Assembly: GCA_035259385.1 (NCBI GenBank)
Contig: DATFWL010000130.1
Location: 33,319-97,318, forward strand
Reading direction: 5' to 3'
Origin: Vicinamibacterales bacterium
GTDB lineage: Bacteria; Acidobacteriota; Vicinamibacteria; Vicinamibacterales; CAVVIG01
Length of the DNA: 64,000 nt
Under the pieces are notes generated by a model. It made no database searches. It saw only the letters and a program-made list of their open reading frames with translations, and was not told the origin of the DNA. Of this stretch, positions 21,792 to 64,000 are shown one piece after another. How positions within the stretch are numbered: position 1 is the stretch's first letter; each line of letters starts with the position of its first letter. The translations under genes and the position numbers were made by a program.

Positions 21792-23160
21792 CGTGCTGGC
21801 TGCCGGCGCAGCGCTCAGCGCGGCGCGGCCGCAGTATGGAGGGACGCTTCGCGCCGAAGTCGACACGCCGGTCAGCAGCCTCGATCCCGCGTCGGCCCCG
21901 TCCGAGCCGGGCCAGGAGACGACGCGCACGCGCCTCGCGACGCTCCTCTTCGAGTCGCTCACCGCGATCGAACCGGACGGGCTGCGGCCGGTGCTGGCCA
22001 CCTCGTGGCAGGCCGACGTTCGTGGCACGCACTGGCGGTTTCGTCTGCGCAGCGGCGTCGTCCTGCACGATCGCACGACGCTCGAACCCTGGCAGGCGGC
22101 CGCGGCGATTCGGCACAGCGAGCCGGCGTGGACGGTGAACCCCGACGGCGACTCGATCGCGATCGACACGGGCGAGCCGGTGGCGGACCTGCCGTGGCTG
22201 CTCGCCGACGGCAGGCACGCGATTGTGATTCGAGCCGCCGGCGGCGCGCTGATCGGCAGCGGGCCGTTCCGCATCGATCACGTCGAGCCGTCCCGCCTCC
22301 TGCTCAAGGCACACGAGGGCTACTGGCGCGCGCGCCCGTTCGTCGACGCCGTGCAGATCGAGCTCGGCCGGAAACTCGACATGCAGCTCACCGACCTCGA
22401 GGGAGGCCGAACCGACATCGTCAACGTCCGCGCGACCGACGTGCGACGGCTCACGCGCCGCGGTCTGCGCGTCGAGGCATCGCGTCCGCTGGAGCTCGTC
22501 GCGCTGATCTTCGAGCCGCATCGCGCGGCTGACTCGGCGATCGCGTGGCGCCGCGCGCTGGCCGCCACGATCAACCGCGATGCGATCGGTGCCGTGGTGC
22601 TGCAGGGGCAGGCGGCACCGGCGCGTGCGATCCTGCCTGAGTGGATCTCAGGCTACACGCAGGTCGTCGCGCCCGCCGAGGGTCCGACGCTCGCGGCGCC
22701 TGCCATCGCGGCGCTGCCGATCGACCAGCGGACCGTCCTCCTGCGGGTCGACCCGGCGGACGCCGTGACGCAGGCGATCGCCGATCGGCTGGCGGTCGAC
22801 GCGCGCGAGGCGGGCTTCACGGTGAAGGTGCAGGCGCCGGTCGGTCTCGCGCCTCGCGCCGATGCGCGGCTCATTCGTCTTGCCGTGCCGGCCACGACGG
22901 CCGACCGCGCGTTCGCCGAGACGGCGGCGCGGCTGACGGTGCGCGGCTGGCCCGCGATCACGCTGCCGGGTGGGACGACGCTCGACGCGACGTATCGTGC
23001 CGAGCAGACGCTCCTCGATCGCCTGATCGTCGTCCCGATCGTTCATCTCCCCGAGTTGTACGGCGTCAGCGAGCGTGTCGGCTCGTCGCTGTATCCGGCC
23101 GCACGCGCGATCGGCGGCTGGGATCTCGCCGATCTCTGGCTGCAGGGCGGACGGCCGTGA
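21754..23160 (+). CDS. ABC-transporter-type substrate-binding protein, family 5 (peptide/nickel SBP fold)
   Basis: MKPFRSRCLALASVLAAGAALSAARPQYGGTLRAEVDTPVSSLDPA is the classic family-5 SBP start. No cognate permease or ATPase is adjacent. Confidence 0.8.
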   Translation: MKPFRSRCLALASVLAAGAALSAARPQYGGTLRAEVDTPVSSLDPASAPSEPGQETTRTRLATLLFESLTAIEPDGLRPVLATSWQADVRGTHWRFRLRSGVVLHDRTTLEPWQAAAAIRHSEPAWTVNPDGDSIAIDTGEPVADLPWLLADGRHAIVIRAAGGALIGSGPFRIDHVEPSRLLLKAHEGYWRARPFVDAVQIELGRKLDMQLTDLEGGRTDIVNVRATDVRRLTRRGLRVEASRPLELVALIFEPHRAADSAIAWRRALAATINRDAIGAVVLQGQAAPARAILPEWISGYTQVVAPAEGPTLAAPAIAALPIDQRTVLLRVDPADAVTQAIADRLAVDAREAGFTVKVQAPVGLAPRADARLIRLAVPATTADRAFAETAARLTVRGWPAITLPGGTTLDATYRAEQTLLDRLIVVPIVHLPELYGVSERVGSSLYPAARAIGGWDLADLWLQGGRP

Positions 23161-24946
23161 CGCTCCGCGCGCGGCTGTTCGTGCTCGTCGGCCTCGTCGT
23201 CGCTGTCTCCGTGGCGCTGGTGACGATCACCATTTCCGCTGCGGCGCGGCGATCGTTCGAGGCGCTCGACCGTCAAAGGACGAGTGCTCTGATTGCGCAG
23301 TTCAGGCGCGAGTTCGTGCTGCAGGGCGACGACGTCGCACGCCGGATCGATCGGCTCGCGGCAAGCGACGTGGTGCAGCGCACCGCCGTTGACCTGGCCA
23401 GGCACGGCGATCCCGCGCCGTTTGCCGGCGACGCGGCGCCGATGGCCGCCGCTCAGGGACTCGACTTCTTCGATCTCGTTGCCGCCGATGGCACGATCAT
23501 CTCGTCGGCGGAATGGCCTGCACGCTTCGGGTATCGACATCCCTGGGCGACGACGCTGCACGCCGGCGCCGCCGCATTTCTGCAGACGATCGAGTTGCCG
23601 CACGAGACCGCGCTGGGGCTCGTCGCCGTCAGGCAGGTGTCGGCGGGCATCGGTTCGTTGTACATCGGCGGCGGGGAGCGGCTCGATCAGCAGTTTCTGC
23701 GCACGCTGCGGCTGCCCGACGGGATGCGGGTGTTTCTGTACCGCAACGTCGAGCCGGAAGTCTCGCGGCAGCAACTCCTCGACGTCTCCGGCCAGGCGAC
23801 GGCGCCGGCGCCGATCGAGCCGCTGATCGCGCGCGTCCGGCAGACCGCGCAGGAGGCGAGCGACACCATCGAATCGACCGATGGAGCAGAGTTCGTCTCG
23901 GCGATCCCGCTGACCGGATCGAGCGGCGAGGTGCTCGGCGTGCTTCTGCTCGCCAGCTCGGGCCGTGAGCTCGCCGCGCTGCTGTCGCGAATCCGCTGGA
24001 GCGGCGTCGGCTTCGGCGTGCTCGGCCTGATCGTGGGCGCGGCGCTGAGCTACGCGGCGGCGACGCAGGTGACACGTCCCGTCGAAGTCGTGGCCGAGGC
24101 GGCGGACCGGATCGCGGGCGGCGACTGGGACGCGCGCGTCGGCGAGGTGAGTGCCGGGCGCGAGATCGACGCGCTCGCCCGTGCGTTCGACACGATGGCG
24201 GCCCACCTGGTCGAGCAGCGCGATCGTCTGGTCCAGGTCGAGCGGGTGGCCGCCTGGCGCGAGCTGGCGCGCCGGCTGGCGCACGAGCTGAAGAACCCGC
24301 TGTTTCCGCTCCGCATCACGCTCGACAACCTGCGCCGGGCGCGCACGCTGCCGGCGCACGAGTTCGAGGAGGTGCTCGACGAGAGCCTGGCCACTCTCGA
24401 CACCGGCTTCAGGAACCTGAACGTCGTCGTCGGACGCTTCGGCGATTTCGCGCGGATGCCGGCACCGATCTTCGAGGACATGTCGCCGAATGCGATCGCC
24501 GAGCAGACGCTCACGCTGGTCCGGTCCCAGATCGAGGCTGCCGATCGTCCCGCGATCCGTGTGACGCTCGACCTCGACCCGGCGTGCGGCACCGTGCGCG
24601 CGGACGGTGAGCAGATGGGACGGGTGATGCACAACCTCGTGTTGAACGCGGTTGACGCGATGCCCACGGGCGGCGACCTGACGATTCGCACGCGGCCGGT
24701 CCCCACCGGCGTCCGCATCGACGTCGCCGATACGGGAGAAGGACTCACCGACGAGGAGCGCGCGCGCTTGTTCACGCCGTACTACACCACGAAGCAGCAC
24801 GGCACCGGCCTCGGCCTGGCGATCGTGCAGTCGGTCGTCGCCGATCACTCCGGCCGCGTCTGGGTGGACAGCGCGCCCGGCCGCGGTTCGACGTTCCACA
24901 TCGAGCTGCCGCGCGCGCCGCGCGACGCGGCGAAGGGCGTACCGGC

Positions 24947-24950
<4 letters not shown>
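23157..24950 (+). CDS. sensor histidine kinase (periplasmic sensor domain, HAMP, HisKA, HATPase; NtrY/AtoS-like)
   Basis: GTG start overlaps the SBP stop (GTGA). Two TM segments flank a periplasmic domain of about 270 aa. H-box LAHELKNPLFPL. N box HNLVLNAVDAM. G boxes DTGEGL and GTGLGLAIV. Confidence 0.9.
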
Positions 24951-26311
<1,361 letters not shown>

Positions 26312-26317
26312 CGAATG

Positions 26318-26396
26318 GACGTAGCGCGAAGGCCTTGGCCGAGCGACCGTGTGATCGCGGCCCGCTGACACTCGGCTGAAGCCTTCGCGCTACGTC
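26318..26396. repeat. REP-like hairpin with perfect 16-nt arms GACGTAGCGCGAAGGC / GCCTTCGCGCTACGTC
   Basis: Read directly. The inner part also pairs (ggccgagcg … cactcggc). The right arm plus flank is near-identical to the core at 10553-10578. Confidence 0.9.
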
Positions 26397-26480
26397 GATA
26401 CGGAAAATCCGCGCAGCGGCGGGCAACGACGCGTTCGACGTCTGTGCGTGGCTGCTGCCAGAGTGGACAATGCTCTAGTC

Positions 26481-29400
26481 ATGGAAGTGCTGGTCCTGTT
26501 CGCCGTGCTGATCGTGGCGTTTCCGTATGTGGCTGCGATCGTGAACTGGGGGCGAACGGCAGACCTGCGCCGACGTCTCGCCGACCTCGAGGAGCTGTCG
26601 CGCCGGCAGGAAGCGGCGATCGCTGCGCTCACGCAGCGCCTGCGGGAGGCGAAAGCAGCGGCCGCACCGCCGGCGGCCGCTGAGCCGCGTGCGGCAGCTC
26701 CACAGGCGCTGCCGCCGGTGCCGGTCGTTCCGAAGCAGACGGCGCCGCCGGCCCCGCCGCGTGTTGTTGAGCCGGCTGAGCCGCCCCCAGCCGTCGCGCA
26801 GCCGTCGCTCGTGCCGCCGACAGCTGCGAAGCCGGCGGCGACGCCGTCAGTTCCGCCGGTGACACCAGCCGCCGCGCCGCCGGCCGCCGCGGCGCGACCG
26901 CCAGTCGCACCGCCGCCGCCGCCGCTGCCTCCGCCGCCTCCGCGACCACCGGCGCGCGAGCCGTTCGACTGGGAACGGGTCGTCGGCGTCAAGATGTTCT
27001 CAGCGGTCGCCGGCGTCGCGCTCGTGCTGGCGGCGGTGTTCTTCCTCCGCTACTCCATCGACCATGGATGGCTCGCGCCGCCGGTTCGGGTCGCGATCGG
27101 CGTGCTCGTCGGCATCGGGCTCCTGATCGCGTGCGAGCTCCGCGCCGCGCGAAAATATCCGGTGACGGCGAACGCGCTCGATGCCGCGGCGATCGCGATC
27201 CTCTTCTCGACGTTCTTCGCCGCTCACGCGCTCTGGCAGCTGATTCCAGCGACGGCGGCCTTCGGCCTGCTCGCGCTCGTCACCGGTGTCGCCGTGCTGC
27301 TGTCGATCCGGCGCGACTCGGTGTTCATCGCGCTGCTCGGGCTGCTCGGCGGCTTCGCGACGCCGATGCTGTTGTCCACCGGCGAGAACCGGCCGGTGCC
27401 GCTGTTCGCGTACCTGCTGCTCCTGAACCTCGGCCTCGCGTGGGTCGCCGCCCGGAAGCGGTGGCGGCTGCTGACGATCCTCAGCATCGCCTTCACGACG
27501 TTCTACCAGTGGGGCTGGGTGATCACCTTTCTCACCGCGAGCCAGCTGCCGCTGGCGATGGGCGTCTTCCTCGTCTTCTCGCTGACCGGCTTCGCGTCGA
27601 TTCTGTTCACTGCCCCGGCCGCGCCGTCGACGGAGACGCCGGCGCTCGCGCGGGCAGGCCTTGCCGCGGCGGCGATGCCGCTCGTGTTTGCCGCCTATCT
27701 CGCTGCGGTGCCCGGATACGGCGCGCAACCGGGCCTCCTGTTCGGATTCCTCCTGATCGTGGACGCCGGCCTCTTCGCGGTCACGGTCTGGCGCCGCGAT
27801 CCCTGGGCGCATGCGCTCGGCGCCGTGGCCGCCGGCGTCGTGTTCGCGACGTGGCTCGCGGTGTCGTACGCGCACGGCGCCTGGACCATCGCCATCGGGT
27901 TCGCCTCGGCCTTCATCGTCTTCTTCGCGCTGGCGCCGAGGCTTGCGGTGCGCGCGGGCCGGCCGCTCGAGGGACTGTCCGCTCGCGCCATCTACGCCGC
28001 GCCGATGCTGCTGTTCGTCTTCACCGCGATCGCGCGGATTGAGCCGGCGGCCGACGCGCCGGCCCGCCTGTTTGCGCCGATGCTCGCGCTGCTCGGCGTC
28101 ATCACGTGGCAGGCGTTCGCACGCCGCGAGTTCCCGCTGTACTACCTGGCTGCGTTCTTTGCCGTCGTGTCCGAGGCAGCGTGGTCGGCGGCGCATCTCA
28201 CGTCCGATCACCTGCGCGCGGCCATCGCCGTGTACGCGGCCTTCGGCATCCTCTACATCGGCGTGCCGGTGGCCGCCAGGCGCGCACGCGTGACGATGAC
28301 GCCGCGGTGGGGCGGCGGCGTGGTACTGATTGCCAGCCTGCTGCTGCTCCTGTATCTCGCCGAGGGCGCGCACGCGGCGGCAGCGTTGTGGGGACTCGCG
28401 TTCCTGCTCGCCATCCTCAACGCAGGGCTCTTCGTCGAGAGCGCCTCGGGCGAACTGCCTGCGTTGTCGGTCGTCGGCGGCGGCGTCTCGTGGTTCGTGC
28501 TCGCGATCTGGTGGGGCAATGCTGCGGCCGCGGTCGGCCTCCTGCCGTCGCTGCTCTTCCTCGTCATGTTGACGTTGACGATGCTCGTCGGCTACGGGTG
28601 GAGTCACCGCCAGGCACGCAGCCGGAGCGATTTCGACCCGTCGCGGTCTGGATTCCGACCCGGCGCGTACCTGGGATTGATCGGCTACCTGTTCTTGTTC
28701 GCGATCGCGATCGATCCCGAATGGTCGGTGCCGCCATGGCCGTTGTTCGGTGCGCTCGCCGTGATGACGCTGGCGCTCACGACGACGTCGCTCGCAGTGG
28801 ACTCGAGCCAGCTGCACGGCGCGGGCGTGGCGGCGGCGGCCATCGTGGTGTTCGCATGTTCAGTGGTCGCGGGCGCTCCGTGGGGGCCGACCCTGGTGGC
28901 GGCCGCGGAGGTCGTCGCCGCCTACGCGCTGGCCTGGGTGGCGGTGATGCGGGCGCGCGGATCGTGGCGGTTCGCCGCGGCGGGCGCGATCTGGACGCTC
29001 TTCATGGCGAGCCTGACGCTCGGCGAAGCGTCCGGCGCGTCCACGTCCATGCCGGTCGCGATCGTGGCGATCGTCGCCGCCGCAAACGTCGCGTTGATAT
29101 TCGCGAGCGCGTGGTCCGCGCGGTGGGAGTGGGTCGCTCCGTCAGCGGTGGTCGCCGCCTGGTGGGTCGAGACTGCGTGGCATGAGCAGCACATCCGCAC
29201 GATGGACTGGTCGGGGTCGTTCGCGCTCGCGCTCGTCCTGTACGCCGTCTTCGTCGCCTATCCGGTCGTGCTCGGACACCGCGCCCGGACGTCGCGGGAT
29301 CCGTACATCGCGGCGATTGCCGGCAGCGCGCTGTTCTTCTTCACCGGGCGCACCGCGCTCGTGCAGGGCGGCTACGGTCAGTTCGTCGGCGCCGTCCCGG

Positions 29401-30200
29401 TGCTCGAAGGCGCGGTCAGCGCATTGCTGCTGCGCCAGCTGCTGCGCATCGAACCCAGCGGATCGCGCGACCTCGGCCGGCTCGCGCTGGTCGCCGGCGC
29501 GTCGCTCGCGTTCGTCACGGTCGCGATCCCGCTGCAGCTCCACAATCAGTGGATCACGATCGGCTGGGCGCTCGAGGGCGCGGCGCTCGCCTGGGTGTAT
29601 CGCCGCGTCCCGCACCGCGGGTTGCTCTACTGGTCGTTCGCGCTGCTCGCCGCCGTGTTCGCGCGGCTGGCGCTGAACCCGGCGGTGTTCGTTTACGAGC
29701 CGCGCGGCCTTCGCGTGTTCAACTGGTACCTGTATGCGTACGCGGTCTGCGCGGCAGCGATGTTCGTGGCGGCGTGGTGGCTCGCCACGACCGACGATCG
29801 GATCCTGTCGCTGCCGCGGGCGTCGCGGCTGCTGCCGGCGGCGGCGGTGATCCTGCTGTTCCTGCTCCTGAACATCGAGATCGCCGACTTCTACGCGACC
29901 GGCCGCGAAATCGCGTTCCGCTTCGGCGTGACGCTGGCGCAGGACCTCACCTACACGATCGGCTGGCTGGCGTTCGGCATGCTGCTGCTGACCGGCGGCA
30001 TCTACCTGCGGAACCAGCCGGCGCGCGTCACCGCCGTCGCATTGATCGCGATCACGGCGTTCAAGGCATTTCTGTACGACACCGGGTCGCTCGGCGGCCT
30101 CTATCGCGTCGGCTCGCTCGTCGGCCTCGCGGTGTCGCTGTCGCTCGTCGCGCTCGCGCTCCAGAAGTTCGTCCTGCATCCATCGGAAGGTCGCGCCTGA
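26481..30200 (+). CDS. DUF2339 domain-containing polytopic membrane protein
   Basis: N-terminal TM segment, a coiled coil (RRRLADLEELSRRQEAAIAALTQRL), a Pro/Ala-rich linker, then more than 25 TM segments, the architecture I associate with DUF2339. The start may instead be GTG 26448. Confidence 0.7.
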   Translation: MEVLVLFAVLIVAFPYVAAIVNWGRTADLRRRLADLEELSRRQEAAIAALTQRLREAKAAAAPPAAAEPRAAAPQALPPVPVVPKQTAPPAPPRVVEPAEPPPAVAQPSLVPPTAAKPAATPSVPPVTPAAAPPAAAARPPVAPPPPPLPPPPPRPPAREPFDWERVVGVKMFSAVAGVALVLAAVFFLRYSIDHGWLAPPVRVAIGVLVGIGLLIACELRAARKYPVTANALDAAAIAILFSTFFAAHALWQLIPATAAFGLLALVTGVAVLLSIRRDSVFIALLGLLGGFATPMLLSTGENRPVPLFAYLLLLNLGLAWVAARKRWRLLTILSIAFTTFYQWGWVITFLTASQLPLAMGVFLVFSLTGFASILFTAPAAPSTETPALARAGLAAAAMPLVFAAYLAAVPGYGAQPGLLFGFLLIVDAGLFAVTVWRRDPWAHALGAVAAGVVFATWLAVSYAHGAWTIAIGFASAFIVFFALAPRLAVRAGRPLEGLSARAIYAAPMLLFVFTAIARIEPAADAPARLFAPMLALLGVITWQAFARREFPLYYLAAFFAVVSEAAWSAAHLTSDHLRAAIAVYAAFGILYIGVPVAARRARVTMTPRWGGGVVLIASLLLLLYLAEGAHAAAALWGLAFLLAILNAGLFVESASGELPALSVVGGGVSWFVLAIWWGNAAAAVGLLPSLLFLVMLTLTMLVGYGWSHRQARSRSDFDPSRSGFRPGAYLGLIGYLFLFAIAIDPEWSVPPWPLFGALAVMTLALTTTSLAVDSSQLHGAGVAAAAIVVFACSVVAGAPWGPTLVAAAEVVAAYALAWVAVMRARGSWRFAAAGAIWTLFMASLTLGEASGASTSMPVAIVAIVAAANVALIFASAWSARWEWVAPSAVVAAWWVETAWHEQHIRTMDWSGSFALALVLYAVFVAYPVVLGHRARTSRDPYIAAIAGSALFFFTGRTALVQGGYGQFVGAVPVLEGAVSALLLRQLLRIEPSGSRDLGRLALVAGASLAFVTVAIPLQLHNQWITIGWALEGAALAWVYRRVPHRGLLYWSFALLAAVFARLALNPAVFVYEPRGLRVFNWYLYAYAVCAAAMFVAAWWLATTDDRILSLPRASRLLPAAAVILLFLLLNIEIADFYATGREIAFRFGVTLAQDLTYTIGWLAFGMLLLTGGIYLRNQPARVTAVALIAITAFKAFLYDTGSLGGLYRVGSLVGLAVSLSLVALALQKFVLHPSEGRA

Positions 30201-55426: not shown

Positions 55427-55798
55427 TCAGTTCATTGTCGCGACGAGCGGCTGCGCCGACGCGTCGTGAAACGATCCGAAGCCAACCGGATCGAACTCGG
55501 CCAGTTGCGGCGCTTCGACCCAGGTGCAGACCGGAATCTCGGCGGTCTCCGGATCGAGCGCGAGCATCGACAGGAGTTGGAAGCTCCGGAGGTCGTCGAT
55601 CGCCAGGCAGACAATCACCAGATCCGGTGTCGTCTTCTTGATGCACGAGTAGGCACGCTCCGTCGACTCGACGAACACCACGTCGTAGTCGCCGGCGTCG
55701 AGAAGCGTATCGAGCACCGCCGGCTGCAGGTCGGTCGCGACGACCGCGACGGTTCTCGGCGTGGTGACCTTCGAGGCGCGGCCTGCATCGTTCTTCAT
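55427..55798 (-). CDS. receiver (CheY-like) fold protein with a degenerate acidic pocket (pseudo-receiver)
   Basis: GGGAG SD before ATG 55796-55798. The pattern VAVVATDLQ…GDYDVVFVES…AYSCIKKTTPDLVIVCLAIDDLRSFQLLSML…IPVCTWV mirrors REC beta/alpha periodicity, but the N-terminal DD pair is TD. Confidence 0.6.
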   Translation of the reverse strand: MKNDAGRASKVTTPRTVAVVATDLQPAVLDTLLDAGDYDVVFVESTERAYSCIKKTTPDLVIVCLAIDDLRSFQLLSMLALDPETAEIPVCTWVEAPQLAEFDPVGFGSFHDASAQPLVATMN

Positions 55799-55822
55799 GA
55801 TCAACTCCCGCCGGCGAGCACT

Positions 55823-55838
55823 GGCAAAGACAATGCCG
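55823..55838 (-). promoter_or_regulatory. sigma-54 type promoter (minus strand cGGCAT-tgtct-TTGCc)
   Basis: GG-N10-GC spacing is exact and the -12 element is TTGC. The -12 GC is 26 nt upstream of the receiver-like ATG, implying a leader of about 14 nt that contains the SD. Confidence 0.55.
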
Positions 55839-56036
55839 CTACGTTTTGCAGCGTTTTGCGCGGCCGCGGGCGTTGTGGCATCCAGGCGCCCGTACACATT
55901 GCACATGGATGCGCAACCCGGCGGTTGATCGACAGTCCCCCGACGTCGCCGCGACCTACCGCTGTGCGCCCGCAGTGCCGCTAACGCGCTCATTCCACGT
56001 GGTCTGCCGCCAGCGGACACGCACCGCTCCGGTCAG

Positions 56037-56051
56037 CGGCGCGCCGCTTGC
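56037..56051 (+). promoter_or_regulatory. sigma-54 type promoter cGGCGC-gccgc-TTGCc
   Basis: Exact GG-N10-GC spacing. Near-identical to the element at 58532-58546 (GGCGCnCCGnTTGCCTTG). It lies 28 nt upstream of small ORF A. Confidence 0.6.
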
Positions 56052-56078
56052 CTTGTCACCGCGCGAAAGGTGACGACG

Positions 56079-56318
56079 ATGACCAACGACTTCTACCGCT
56101 ACCGGCAGCAGAGCCTCGAGATCTTCATCGACCACCTCCTCGAGGACGAGGAGCTCCGTGATTCGTTCCTCCGCACCCCGCGGCAGACCCTGCGGCACGC
56201 CGCCGACTGGGGGCTTCCGCTCTGCGAGAGCGAGATGCGCGCCCTCATCGCCGCGGATCCGTCGGTGTGGGACCGGATTGCGGACGAACTCGACTCGCGG
56301 CTGCAGCAGGCGGCCTGA
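56079..56318 (+). CDS. small helical protein A (79 aa), uncharacterised; paralog of 58578-58841
   Basis: GAAAGG SD 8 nt before the ATG. High GC3. About 40% identity by eye with ORF B ([20 protein letters not shown]… vs SIEIVIGRLLTDEEFRDTFL…; …[24 protein letters not shown] vs …ALIAVDVSLWLRVAEQIDPRLQKA). Confidence 0.65.
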
Positions 56319-56362: not shown

Positions 56363-58390
56363 ATGATGCCCGGTCCTTCGCGAGTCGAACTCGCCCGCCT
56401 GCGCGACGAGGCCCGCGCGGTCGTTCGCTCGGTGGCCGTCGGGTTCGCTCGCCGGCTCGACGACGATCACGTCTCGGTGCTGTGCTCGCACGCGAACGGC
56501 ATCAGCGAGCAGATCGTCGGCACCGCCGACGCGCCGGAGGCGCTGCTGCCGGCCGCAGACGGCAGACGCGGCGTCGGCGCCGCGGATCTGTGCGCCAACC
56601 CCGAAGGCGCCGTCGAGTGGCAGCTTCGGCTCACCGGCGTCACGCAGATTGCATCAGTCGACGTGCCCTCGTCCTCGGAGCCCACGCGATTCTGGATCGG
56701 GTTGGCGGACGCCGCGCCGCCTGCGCCGGATACGCTGGCCGCGATCGAGACGATCGGGCGTCGCAGCCTGCCGATCCTGAATCGAGCGCCGTCGGCCGAG
56801 GAATCGGTCGAGCACCTGTTGCGCCTGGAAGCCGCGGCGGCGCTGCTGCCGACGCTGGGCCAGGTCCTCGACGTCGGCGATGTAATCGAGCACTTGTCGA
56901 TCGTGGCGCGGCGGGCGCTGCCGCACGATCTCCTGTTCCTGCGCTTCTTCGGCGACGATCTGTCGAAGATTGTTCTGTTCGCGCGGAACGCGCGCGGCGT
57001 CGACATCGATCCGGTGCTGCCGCACCTGTACCCGCCGGCACTGACCCGCACCTGGAACTTCGACATCATCGACGATCTCGCCTGCCACCCGCTCGAGCGC
57101 GATCGGCCTCCGCTCTGGATGGGCGCGCGGTCGTCGATTCGCGTGCCAATCAAGCTCGACGATCGCGTCGTCGGCGGGATCGCGTTCATGTCGTTCGAGC
57201 CCCACACCTACGCGATCGACGACGTCGAGGTCGGCCGCCGACTGGCCGACCATCTGGCGGTGGCGGTGTCGCGTCAACGCCTCGTCGAGCAGGCGCGCCA
57301 GAACGAAACGCTGAGCGTGAGAGCCACGAAAAGCGCGGCGCTCGTCAAACGCGACGACGAAGCGACTCCGAGGGCCTCAACGCTCGAGCTGCGGGTGAAG
57401 TCGCTCGCCGAGGAGTTGGACGCCGGCACCGGCTACCGGCGCGTCGTCGGCGACTCGCCGCAGTGGCGCGGTGTGCTCAGGCAGGCGATGCAGGTCGCGT
57501 CCACCGACACGACGTCGCTGCTGCTCGGAGAGTCGGGCACCGGCAAGGAAGTGATCGCGCGCTTTCTGCACCGCGCCTCGCCACGCGCGGCCGGTCCGTT
57601 CGTCGCGCTGAACTGCGCGGCGCTGCCGGAGCAGCTGCTCGAGGCGGAGCTGTTCGGCTACGAACGCGGCGCCTTCACTGGCGCGACCCAGAGCAAGCCC
57701 GGGCAGCTCGAACAGGCCGCGGGCGGCACGCTGTTCCTCGATGAAGTCGGCGAGATGAGCCCGTCGGCGCAGGCGAAGTTCCTGCGGGTACTCCAGGAGC
57801 GCGAGTTCCAGCGGCTCGGCGGGACGAGAGTCCTGCGCACGGACGCGCGCATCGTGGCCGCAACCAATCGCGATCTGCGACGCGCGATCGCGCAGGGTCA
57901 CTTCCGCGAAGACCTGTTCTACCGGCTGAACGTGTTCGCGATCCGCCTGCCGCCGCTGCGTGATCGGCGGGACGACATCCTGGTGCTCGCCGAGGCGTTC
58001 CTCGCCGACATCGCCCGCGGCCTCGGGTGCCCGCCAGCCGGCATCTCGCGCGACGCGCGGCGGATGCTGATCGACTACTCGTGGCCCGGCAACGTCCGCG
58101 AGCTGCGCAACTCGCTCGAGCGGGCGGCGATCCTCTGCGACGGCGGGCTGATCACGACCGACCACCTGTCGTTGTGTCCTCTGCCCGCGGCTGTGGCACC
58201 GCCGGACACGACCAAACGTGCCGGACCCGCTTCACCGCCGTCGTCAATCGACGAGCTGCGATCGATTGAGCGGTCGATGATCGAGGAAGCCCTGCGCGAG
58301 GCGCGGTACAACAAGTCGAAGGCGGCCAAGGCGCTCGGGCTGACACGCCAGCAGCTGTACGTCAGGCTGCGCAAGCATGCCATCGAGTAG
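56363..58390 (+). CDS. sigma-54-dependent transcriptional activator (unassigned N-domain, one GAF, AAA+, Fis-type HTH)
   Basis: GESGTGKE Walker [20 protein letters not shown]-terminal [26 protein letters not shown]-like block …[25 protein letters not shown]…. Start chosen at ATG 56363, after the small ORF stop. Confidence 0.9.
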
Positions 58391-58531
58391 ACGGACGCAG
58401 GACAGGCTGGCCGGAAGGACGCACCTTGTCGGTTTGTGCGCAGGACGCGCTCGACGTGCCGTGCGGGGCTGGCGATGGTCAACCGCCGGCGTGTGTGCCA
58501 CTTAGACGCGTTGACGGATCGACGCGGCGCA

Positions 58532-58546: not shown

Positions 58547-58577
58547 CTTGCAGCATGAGCGGGGAGACGCGAACGCT

Positions 58578-58841
58578 GTGACGCAACGGAGCATCGAGAT
58601 CGTCATCGGACGGCTGCTGACCGACGAGGAGTTTCGCGACACGTTTCTGAGCAATCCGTACCGTGCGCTGGGCGGCCTGCTCGAACACGGCACGGAGTTG
58701 AGCCACGCCGAGATCGCCGCGCTGATCGCGGTCGATGTGAGCCTCTGGCTGCGCGTCGCAGAACAGATCGATCCGCGGCTGCAGAAGGCCAGCTTGAAAC
58801 CGCCGCCTCGCGACGCTGACGCGTCCGACAGCGGCATGTGA
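58578..58841 (+). CDS. small helical protein B (87 aa), uncharacterised; paralog of 56079-56318
   Basis: GTG start downstream of the predicted transcription start. Sequence MTQRSIEIVIGRLLTDEEFRDTFLSNPYRALGGLLEHGTELSHAEIAALIAVDVSLWLRVAEQIDPRLQKA plus an acidic, Pro-rich tail. Confidence 0.65.
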   Translation: MTQRSIEIVIGRLLTDEEFRDTFLSNPYRALGGLLEHGTELSHAEIAALIAVDVSLWLRVAEQIDPRLQKASLKPPPRDADASDSGM

Positions 58842-59021: not shown

Positions 59022-60897
59022 ATGGCCGTGGCCGACACAGCGAGCGACAGGATCCGCGCCCTCCACCGGACAGCGGCAGCCGATTTTGCAGGGAGCGGTG
59101 TCGGCGTCGTGCGGAGCGACGGACCCGATCACCTCGAGCTCCAGTACGTGGACTGTCTGGGCGCGACGGCCTACCGCGTTCCAGTCGATCAGATGCCCGA
59201 GGCGTTCAGGCCGTCCCGCCGACGTGAGGCATCTGTCCGCCGAGGATCTCGAACGGAATGCCGCACGGCTCGTCGAGTCTCGCGTGCTCAACGCGAGCCT
59301 GCCCGAGCACGTCCGCGGCCCGCGTCCGATCCGGCAGGTCTTCACGCTGCCGCTGCACGATCACGATGAAGAGATGCTGCTGATCGTTGCGCTGGCCGAC
59401 AACGATCCGCCGCTGCCCGCCCGGATCTCGGCGATCGAGCGCTCGCCGCTCGCGCCGCGGACGATCCGGCGGCGCCTCCCTCCGACGAGATCGGCCTGCT
59501 GCGCCGCCTCGCAGCTGTCGAACGGCTGTTGCCGGCGTTTTTCCGTGTGCTCGACGTTCGCGAGATCTTCGACCGCCTGTCGGCGATCACCAGGGACGTG
59601 CTGCGCCACGACTTCGCCTCGCTCGGCGTCCTCGGCGAGAGCCTCGACCGGATCGACGTCTACGCGCAGACCACCGCCGGGTCGGCTCCGCAGGACGGCC
59701 CGGTGCCGTTTCCGCGCGTGCAGACCGAGACGTGGCAGTACCGCTTCGTCGACGATTTGACGGCGAGTCCGATGGACCGCGACCAGCCGATCGTGAGAGA
59801 CGGCGGCCGTTCGTCGATCCGGGTCGCCGTCCGCCTCGATGAGCGCGTCCTCGGCGCGCTCAATTTCACGTCCTGCGAGCCGATTCCGTACACCTCTGCC
59901 GACCTCGTCGTCGCGCGTCGCGTCGCCGACTACATCGCGCTGGCGCTCTCACACCAGCGCCTGGCCGACCAACACCGCCGGGCGGCGGCCCTGCGCGAGC
60001 GCGCCGCCAACCTGGAGGTGCTCGACGGGCTGCTGGCGACGCTGACCGGAGTCCTCGATATCCGCGAGGTGTTCGACCGCGTCTCGGCGATCGCGCAGCG
60101 CGTGCTGCCGCACGACGGGTTGACGCTGATGGAGATCATCGACGACGGCGCGAAGATCCGCATGCATGCGAGCATGGGCTTCGGGCCGCTGCCGACGCCG
60201 TACGAATACTCGCCGGGCAGGATCCGTCTGCTCAGCCAGCCGAACGAATACAAGGTGATCGCGGATATGCGCGAGCAGCCGGAATACGCGGCGAGCCCGG
60301 CGCTCGCGGCGGGCATGCGCGCGCTGCTCGTGACCTCGATTCGCGTCGAGGGCCGTCAGTACGGCGGCCTGACCTTCTACTCGAAGCAGCCCGGCCGCTA
60401 TACACGCGACGATGCGCTGATCGCCGGCCGCATTGCCGACCATGTCGCGCTCGCGCTGTCGCATCACCGCCTCGCCGAGCAGGCCCGCCGCAACGAAGAA
60501 CTGCGCGCGCGCGCCGAGAAGAGCGACCTGATCGATGAGGCGCTCGCATCGGTGCTCGACACCGGCGACCTGCAGGCCGCCTTCGATCGCGTCTCGAACG
60601 TCGTGCAGAAGGTGCTGCCGCACGACGCGCTGCTGCTCGCGGTGCGCCTGCGTGAGGGCCAGCGCGCCAGGGTCTACGCCGCCAGGACGTCGAGCGCCCG
60701 GCCGTTCCCGGAGATCGTCGACGTCCCGCCGCGGCTCGTTGCCGATCCGAGCTGGGAATTCGATCTCGTCGACGACCTGCAGGCGTCGCCGGATCAGCAG
60801 CATCTGTGGACGACGCAGCAGGGCGCGCAAGTACGGTCTCGAGTAACCACCAGAAGTTTGCGGATCCCCGCCTTGCCGTGTGCGACCATACCACGCC

Positions 60898-60923
<26 letters not shown>
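59022..60923 (+). pseudogene. decayed paralog of the multi-GAF sigma-54 activator: two frameshifts, truncated inside GAF3, no AAA+ or HTH domain
   Basis: Colinear homology to 60898-63942 runs in frame 0 (59022 to ~59215), frame +1 (~59215 to ~59440) and frame 0 again (~59440 to ~60830). GC3 bias follows the same switches. Similarity ends at …DLVDDLQASPDQQHLW…, where the intact paralog continues. Confidence 0.7.
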
Positions 60924-63942
<3,019 letters not shown>

Positions 63943-64000
63943 AGCCGACAGCCTGGCGACGACCCGGACAGGTTGTACCTTTTTGCGCAACCCGAATCGG

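Follow-up and report, generated by a model that had tools for sequence, protein, structure and literature searches.

Two small genes, here called A and B, were analysed in a stretch of 64,000 nt from a Vicinamibacterales bacterium (assembly GCA_035259385.1, contig DATFWL010000130.1, positions 33,319-97,318 of the forward strand; 68% GC). The whole stretch is referred to as the window. Both genes lie in a cluster with genes for sigma-54 activators (enhancer-binding proteins, EBPs), and each is preceded by a sigma-54-type promoter motif.

Two genuine small genes of the Os1348 family

56079..56318, plus strand: small protein A, ATG to TGA, 79 aa, acidic, all-helical, A-type member of the Os1348/NHLP clan
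58578..58841, plus strand: small protein B, GTG to TGA, 87 aa, B-type member of the Os1348 family, with a five-helix domain and a disordered tail rich in acidic residues and Pro

The proteins A and B are paralogues, with 47% identity across a gapless alignment of 70 aa (BLASTP, E=6e-21). The GC content at third codon positions (GC3) is 0.93 for A and 0.82 for B versus 0.41 and 0.43 at second positions (GC2), the codon-position pattern typical of genuine genes in this genome. Shine-Dalgarno-like motifs are present 6 nt 5' of the ATG of A (AAAGGTGA) and 11 nt 5' of the GTG of B (GGGGAG). Two alternative starts were ruled out: a TTG at 58548, which would extend B to 97 aa, abuts the -12 promoter element, and in place of a GTG at 56070 the orthologues and gene callers use the ATG of A. 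Ratios of nonsynonymous to synonymous substitution rates (dN/dS) against orthologues on other contigs were 0.13-0.37 for B, 0.15-0.23 for A, and 0.33 for a third, C-type paralogue described below. A ratio of 1.5 for B versus its relative in L007 is an artefact of a one-codon deletion in the ungapped comparison. Judged from these sequence comparisons, A and B are under purifying selection.

A total of 265 homologues of B were found in a protein database clustered at 90%, most of them 75 aa long with the C-terminus ...DPRLQKASLK. The residues D16, R20, F23, P27, G38, E45, R67 and L68 of B are invariant among the homologues. The set of A homologues is narrower (n=7). A family profile searched against 1.84 billion representatives retrieved 880 clusters (50% identity) at E<=1e-3, nearly all of them stand-alone proteins of 67-140 aa. 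The family is acidic, with a median isoelectric point (pI) of 5.2 and a pI below 6 in 46 of 59 distinct proteins, contains few Cys residues, and has no transmembrane or hydrophobic segment in the proteins examined.

Protein B scores 56.7 bits against the NCBIfam model NF038399, named 'Os1348 family NHLP clan protein', which is above the cut-off of 40 bits. Protein A scores 34.9, below the cut-off, and its orthologue in locus L046 scores 47.5. Most relatives range from 41 to 64 bits, with B-type relatives at 55-64 and the C-type protein of L046 at 38.6. Both B (34.9 bits) and A (17.4) are below the gathering score of 48 bits for Pfam PF14407 (Frankia_peptide), a tag that homologues carry in the precomputed domain lists of the database. 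For two models of leaders of peptides that ribosomes synthesize and that are modified after translation (RiPPs), B is also below the cut-offs, with 13.8 versus 50.9 for TIGR03793 and 24.0 versus 34 for TIGR04509.

The AlphaFold2 (AF2) model of B has a mean predicted local distance difference test (pLDDT) score of 81, with 49 residues at 90 or higher, five helices across residues 3-63, and a disordered tail from 76 to 87. The top PDB match of this model in Foldseek is 6LK7 (6lk7_C), the crystal structure of Os1348 from Pseudomonas sp. Os17, with a template modelling (TM) score of 0.72 on the target, a root-mean-square deviation of 2.3 A over 64 columns, probability 1.00, and 26% identity. The family profile also retrieves 6LK7 from the PDB by sequence (E=0.002), and B alone gives a weak match (phmmer, E=0.36). 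The model of A (pLDDT 80) is less compact than that of B, and the top match in its fold search is a weak one to 6LK7 (TM 0.41). According to the ECOD curators, PF14407, Nif11, ComX and nitrile-hydratase alpha share one 'LigA-like' helical group, which works mostly via protein-protein contacts (PMC12353581). A and B belong to the Os1348 family of the NHLP clan, which has a LigA-like helical fold. Since this family has a name and a crystallised member, the proteins are not of a new kind.

One explanation would deny A and B any function as proteins: they might be chance open reading frames (ORFs) in GC-rich DNA, which yields many spurious ones, or cis-acting leader ORFs that control the downstream genes by translation. 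The genes are indeed short, they come first in the transcript in all cases, and many are tightly coupled to the gene after them. However, hundreds of homologues conserve both length and residues, dN/dS is far below 1, a curated hidden Markov model (HMM) is matched, the confident fold corresponds to a crystal structure, and monocistronic copies exist. We regard a lack of protein function as extremely improbable, and the spurious-ORF explanation is excluded. A and B are genuine genes for acidic cytoplasmic proteins of about 75-87 aa.

An earlier account made from the letters of the window (the sequence-only reading) had described A and B as a paralogous pair with high GC3, their own Shine-Dalgarno motifs and a written-out conserved core. 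The pair, the GC3 values and the motifs before both starts are confirmed, and the core is correct and extends to hundreds of homologues. What was then called a loose resemblance to NHLP leaders proves to be real homology, as the NF038399 score and the superposition of the B model on 6LK7 attest.

Sigma-54 promoters, activators and conservation of the cassette

56038..56052, plus strand: sigma-54-type promoter of A, GGCGC-GCCGC-TTGCC (GG-N10-GC), kept in L044, L045, L046 and L048
58533..58547, plus strand: sigma-54-type promoter of B, GGCGC-CCCGT-TTGCC
55899..55916, no strand: candidate enhancer (upstream activating sequence, UAS), an imperfect palindrome, TTGCACAT-GG-ATGCGCAA, a block that is kept when the A-type upstream regions of the window, L046 and L048 are aligned
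58420..58445, no strand: enhancer-like element of B, CACCTTGTCGGTTTGTGCGCAGG, with its TTGTCG 107 nt upstream of the -24 GG
63968..63991, no strand: enhancer-like element of the C-type gene, ACAGGTTGTACC-TTTTTGCGCAAC, near the window end, with the C gene beyond
56363..58390, plus strand: EBP1, sigma-54 activator with an N-terminal region, GAF, AAA+ and HTH_8, 45 nt after A
59022..60923, plus strand: EBP2 fragment, a disrupted activator paralogue with an N-terminal region and GAF domains only, lacking AAA+ and HTH
60880..63942, plus strand: EBP3, sigma-54 activator with three GAF domains, AAA+ and HTH_8, likely start ATG 60898

Exact matches to GGCGC-N5-TTGCC occur only twice in the 64 kb, at 56038 and 58533. 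Both have the 10-nt spacing of -24 GG and -12 GC and are at a suitable distance from the start codon. A search with one mismatch was uninformative, with 23 matches versus 15 expected. TGGC and TTGCC are invariant across 8 aligned promoters. Among 66 family copies from 50 sequences, 50 have GGC-N7-TTGC within 200 nt upstream versus about 2 expected (background of 1 per 6127 nt), and in most of the others TGGCAC-N5 precedes a variant -12 element. In every copy examined, the small ORF comes first behind the sigma-54 promoter. Neither a sigma-70-like promoter nor an intrinsic terminator was found after A or B, with no terminator between A and EBP1, and there was no Rfam RNA element in the 55-64 kb region.

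The palindrome upstream of A begins 139 nt upstream of the -24 GG of the A promoter and is shared by the A-type genes. It is positioned between the divergent sigma-54-type promoters of A and of a receiver-like gene, and is a candidate enhancer for both. A different dyad, with the consensus ATCGACAA-S-TTGTCGAT..GCGCA, is present in B- and C-type genes about 107-119 nt upstream of the -24 element, and its core motif was found 82-119 nt upstream in 14 of 39 promoters versus 0.31 expected. These motifs are the expected marks of enhancer-dependent sigma-54 promoters, which are presumably active in vivo.

The Pfam domains of EBP1 are Sigma54_activat (3.9e-69), GAF_2, AAA_lid_14 and HTH_8, and its start at ATG 56363 was taken from independent gene calls on L044. 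A and EBP1 are probably co-transcribed. EBP3 is 55% identical over its full length to the activator of L046. The EBP2 fragment shows 58% identity to that activator overall (aa 1-602) and 68% in the part with an intact frame (aa 170-602), and stops just where EBP3 starts. Comparison with the L046 activator by tblastn and a three-frame read revealed two frameshifts (near 59215 and within 59500-59640) and an in-frame TGA at 59367 in the fragment, which may be either a decaying duplicate or a product of assembly or sequencing errors.

Only 58 nt separate EBP3 from the end of the window. By an exact 24-mer scan we found a metagenome contig, L050, with 99.75% identity to the last 400 nt of the window. 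This contig carries a third, C-type paralogue of 76 aa about 190 nt past the window end. At 1036-1591 of L050, the enhancer, the promoter TGGCCC-CGGCG-TTGCC and the C gene are followed, after a gap of 9 nt, by an outer-membrane efflux gene with a signal peptide. Since L050 continues the locus with a C-type paralogue, the A/B pair is really a trio. In L046, the closest fuller relative, a receiver-like gene on the minus strand is followed by A and B, an activator gene (1015 aa), C, and the genes for an outer-membrane factor, a periplasmic adaptor and a resistance-nodulation-division (RND) transporter, and C overlaps the start of the outer-membrane factor by 4 nt. From the motifs, the cluster appears to be sigma-54-driven throughout.

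We surveyed one genome per species and obtained 39 species-level loci. Nearly all come from Vicinamibacterales or other Acidobacteriota, with a few from Thermoanaerobaculia, Methylomirabilota, Binatia, Acidithiobacillales and SAR324. In 29 of the 39 loci, the small gene has a gene for a multi-GAF sigma-54 activator no more than 1 kb away, in the following arrangements.

Activator upstream of the small gene, same strand: 14 loci, the commonest order (activator, enhancer and sigma-54 promoter, small gene)
Activator upstream of the small gene, divergent: 7 loci
Activator downstream of the small gene, convergent: 6 loci
Activator downstream of the small gene, same strand, as in the window: 2 loci

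When the neighbouring genes were clustered, two families alone came out as near-universal: that of the small protein, with 48 genes in 40 loci, and that of the activator, with 47 genes in 37 loci. The downstream genes vary. An outer-membrane factor, an adaptor and an RND pump are encoded in about a dozen loci; others have MacB/FtsX ATP-binding cassette (ABC) systems with an outer-membrane factor, a Ser/Thr kinase, an alcohol dehydrogenase, a haem-binding protein, a creatininase, or no gene on the same strand. On this comparative evidence, Vicinamibacterales and other Acidobacteriota share a conserved regulatory cassette made up of the small proteins and the multi-GAF activators. We hold with high confidence to the descriptive core of these results, namely the Os1348-family proteins, the cassette of sigma-54 promoter and activator, the trio of paralogues, and the pump operon.

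The sequence-only reading had overlooked the sigma-54 promoters, and neither the third copy nor the efflux operon appears in it. Its pair of copies is correct within the window and becomes a trio just beyond it. It had placed both genes directly upstream of a GAF-type activator gene; this is true of A, which precedes EBP1, but B is followed by the truncated EBP2 fragment and only then by the intact EBP3. That each small gene leads an activator gene does not hold as a conserved feature, in view of the 2 loci of 39 with that order. The expectation of small ORFs beside homologous activators elsewhere is well supported by the 29 species.

A shorter subfamily of 67-69 aa (MSRAGVGMVIEKLLTDENLRIRF...) was observed in L023-L029, L033 and L036, with sigma-54-type promoters (TGGCGTGGATGTTGCC). 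Its members flank the same activator, and DUF4136 lipoprotein-like and DoxX-like genes accompany them.

Possible roles of the small proteins

The small proteins might be RiPP-like or bacteriocin-like precursors or scaffolds, as proposed for Os1348. They could be modified by enzymes encoded elsewhere or by an ATP-grasp enzyme related to Rph and phosphoenolpyruvate (PEP) synthase, exported by the adjacent pump, and possibly sensed as autoinducers by the GAF domains. Membership in the NHLP clan and the resemblance to PF14407 speak for this role, as both groups are defined around RiPP leaders. PF14407 and the NHLP/Nif11 leader precursors of TIGR03793 and TIGR04509, the RiPP precursors reportedly described by Haft and colleagues in 2010, have in common with the small proteins an N-terminal helix motif (LxTDEEFRxxFLxxP) and a LigA-like core of three helices. 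Efflux genes are located downstream in many loci, and precursor, exporter and regulator with autoinduction is a typical layout of peptide signalling. Moreover, an enzyme with PPDK_N and PEP-utilizers domains is encoded directly downstream of the B-type genes in L001-L007. This Rph/PEP-synthase-like phosphotransferase of about 800-840 aa (PPDK_N, Rph_4th and PEP-utilizers domains; L001 10377-12899, L002 2126-4534, and L005-L007) is related to PEP synthase, rifamycin phosphotransferase and PigC/RedH, with scores under every equivalog cut-off. The enzyme, the only neighbour of ATP-grasp type, is restricted to these closest B-type relatives and absent from the window.

However, the proteins have no core. 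The typical B-type protein has 75 aa and ends in ...RLQKASLK(A/T), and the 63-position family domain occupies residues 5-69, so that the helical domain is nearly the whole protein, in contrast to NHLP, Nif11 and PF14407 precursors. The proteins end 5-20 residues past the domain, with tails that are variable or absent, and contain neither a conserved GG or GA cleavage site nor a Cys/Ser/Thr-rich tail. Purifying selection covers the entire length as a folded domain (pLDDT above 90). Across the 39 loci, neither a maturase nor a leader peptidase nor a peptidase-containing ABC exporter is conserved, and no cyclodehydratase, LanM, radical-SAM enzyme, RimK-type ATP-grasp enzyme or peptidase-containing ABC exporter was found nearby. 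Export of folded cytoplasmic proteins of 9 kDa is not known for RND pumps. The canonical RiPP-precursor reading fails because of the missing core and cleavage motif, the lack of a conserved maturase or peptidase-exporter, and HMM scores below every cut-off of the leader models. The sequence-only reading had already doubted a RiPP role from the absence of a GG motif, a Cys/Ser/Thr-rich core and a nearby maturase; these absences hold within the window, and the doubt is strengthened by the survey and by 75-aa orthologues that end 5-6 residues past the domain.

Os1348 crystallised as a dimer; its deletion lowers antibiotic activity, and its cellular level goes up when the neighbouring RND pump gene is deleted (PMC7726476). 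It resembles the present proteins in its NF038399 family, size, helical fold (TM 0.72) and neighbouring RND efflux operon, and the loss of antibiotic activity remains a point for the precursor role. It differs in its distant sequence (26% identity, phmmer E=0.36) and in its control by GacA, and its gene is followed by genes for an acetyltransferase, a gluzincin-like peptidase and a SagB-type dehydrogenase. None of these three neighbours was found among the scanned flanking genes of the window or the recurrent clusters of the 39 loci, where instead the sigma-54 promoter, the enhancer and the multi-GAF activators are constant and the paralogues are of A, B and C types. All in all, we consider the precursor role improbable, and the pairing of small genes with activators suggests a regulatory partner of the activators and not an antibiotic-peptide precursor.

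Our preferred interpretation, to which we would give a probability of roughly 40%, is that the small proteins are sigma-54-induced protein-binding modules that feed back on the activators. Promoter, enhancer and activator are constant while the downstream genes vary, and the small protein is therefore placed in the regulatory module; the synteny leans to this assignment without proving it. EBP1 and EBP3 are themselves behind sigma-54-type promoters, which implies positive autoregulation, and such a circuit would benefit from a co-induced brake. In the proposed mechanism, the GAF arrays would sense a signal, probably a toxic compound or envelope stress, and the activators would then bind the dyads and open the sigma-54 promoters. 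The output would be more activator and the expression of efflux or detoxification genes. As the first product of each transcript, the small protein may bind back to the activator, in the simplest form as an anti-activator. In this scheme we infer the function of the promoters in vivo, the matching of activators to dyads and, above all, the physical contact between small protein and activator.

Similar logic is known from other systems. HycA is an anti-activator of FhlA. The first-cistron position of the small genes is matched by pspA, the first gene of the PspF-dependent pspABCDE operon, and by hycA in the FhlA-dependent hyc operon (PMC4987338). In the PspA-PspF and HycA-FhlA systems, and also in ZraP-ZraSR, the gene is first behind an activator-dependent sigma-54 promoter and beside the activator gene, with the logic of a co-induced brake, and FhlA has N-terminal GAF domains like the activators here. 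On the other hand, PspA (a 222-aa coiled-coil protein) and HycA (153 aa) have no relationship to the small proteins in sequence or fold, the activators here are themselves behind sigma-54-type promoters, several paralogous small proteins and activators coexist, and the interaction is here a proposed one. A further comparison is with ArmR, a small helical anti-repressor of 53 aa, which on induction controls the RND efflux operon MexAB-OprM by protein-protein contact with the transcription factor MexR. It differs in that MexR is a MarR repressor and not a sigma-54 AAA+ activator, in the lack of homology, and in that the pump operon does not begin with the gene for ArmR.

Several points weigh against a feedback role, which rests on inference. 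No homology to PspA or HycA was detected (a Pfam scan at E<=1 gave only PF14407 and CmlA_N). Small genes and activators are not in a 1:1 ratio, with three small genes and one activator in L046 and one small gene and three activators in L005. The GAF activators carry their own sensor domains and need no trans-acting regulator. Os1348, the one relative that has been studied, was taken to be the precursor of an antibiotic and to be modified (PMC7726476). Six species have the small gene as a monocistronic unit convergent with the activator gene, and there it looks like the sole local output and not like a brake. Finally, fusions suggest that the domain can work attached to a downstream product. 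A few predicted proteins join it to an aldo/keto reductase by a linker of about 25 aa with no stop (protein predictions only), and in L051-L053 it is joined to an outer-membrane efflux protein, where the absence of a stop codon was confirmed in the DNA of L051 (5176-6159).

The last two points are what would be expected if the small protein were a cytoplasmic effector or accessory of the induced response, merely regulated by the activator and acting on something else. It might bind or buffer the inducing compound, serve the co-expressed pump or enzyme as a chaperone or modulator, or pass the signal on to another regulator as ArmR does for MexR. In the group L009-L018, the small gene forms a sigma-54 unit by itself, and no other local target is recognisable. 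Besides the fusions, the small gene is translationally coupled or adjacent to an outer-membrane efflux gene, with the 4-nt overlap in L046 and the 9-nt gap in L050, and the loss of the neighbouring RND pump gene in Pseudomonas sp. Os17 changed the cellular level of Os1348. However, the downstream genes are very heterogeneous and the neighbour that stays constant is the activator. It is hard to square pump accessories with a locus that holds three differentiated paralogues, two of them at the head of activator genes and not of a pump, and the proteins have no ligand-binding signature. An effector role seems rather unlikely to us, second to the feedback role and clearly less unlikely than that of a precursor.

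The feedback interpretation can be extended further, in a form that we put forward as speculative and doubtful. An NHLP/LigA-like RiPP-leader fold would have been recruited as a free-standing trans regulator, with A, B and C as paralogue-specific feedback partners of multi-GAF activators, and the phenotype of Os1348 in Pseudomonas would by extension be regulatory and not that of a bacteriocin precursor.

The Os1348/NHLP-clan family has been known from a curated HMM and one crystal structure and is usually assumed to consist of RiPP precursors. This locus and about 40 relatives reveal a large branch (880 clusters at 50% identity) without a core peptide or maturase, tied to sigma-54 promoters, conserved enhancers and unusual multi-GAF activators, and often heading RND or ABC efflux operons. 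We found no description of the cassette of sigma-54 promoter and multi-GAF activator, of differentiated A, B and C paralogues, or of the absence of RiPP machinery, and literature searches on NHLP with sigma-54, on Franean1_4349, and on sigma-54 activators with RND efflux returned nothing relevant. If the extended form of the feedback interpretation is true, it would represent a new kind of small-protein/activator circuit governing efflux and detoxification operons in soil Acidobacteriota. The locus bears on how these abundant and little-studied bacteria switch on efflux and detoxification. The feedback hypothesis is concrete and testable in a heterologous host, with three promoters, two activators and three small proteins. 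It also calls for caution in genome-mining pipelines, since not every NHLP-like small ORF is a natural-product precursor.

Neighbouring genes and other observations

55427..55804, minus strand: receiver-like (CheY-like) single-domain gene, 124 aa, a GC3-supported ORF divergent from A
55823..55838, minus strand: sigma-54-type -24/-12 element of the receiver-like gene, CGGCATTGTCTTTGCC, 19 nt upstream of the gene

The receiver-like protein matches PDB entry 3c3m at E=4e-6 (phmmer) and scores 19.5 bits against Pfam Response_reg, below threshold. A receiver-like gene of 123-125 aa is also present, divergently, upstream of the A-type copies in L044, L046 and L048, and the alignment of A-type upstream regions shows counterparts of its promoter element in L046 (GGCACCGTCCTTGCC) and L048 (GGCACCATCCTTGCG). 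The receiver-like gene probably belongs to the same regulon as the small-protein cassette.

Three tandem GC-rich hairpin-like units of about 38 nt (...GATAAACGT(G/A)GCGCAGCC(T/C)TTC(G/A)GGGCTGC...) are located at 6300-6430 of L046, between the activator stop and the enhancer of the C gene. They resemble intergenic repeats of the repetitive extragenic palindromic (REP) type.

Another sigma-54 system is encoded at 23157-30200 of the window and appears unrelated to the small-protein cassette. Its histidine kinase (HAMP/HisKA; 23157-24950) is accompanied by an NtrC-type response-regulator activator (24947-26311), and a DUF2339 membrane protein of 1250 aa comes next.

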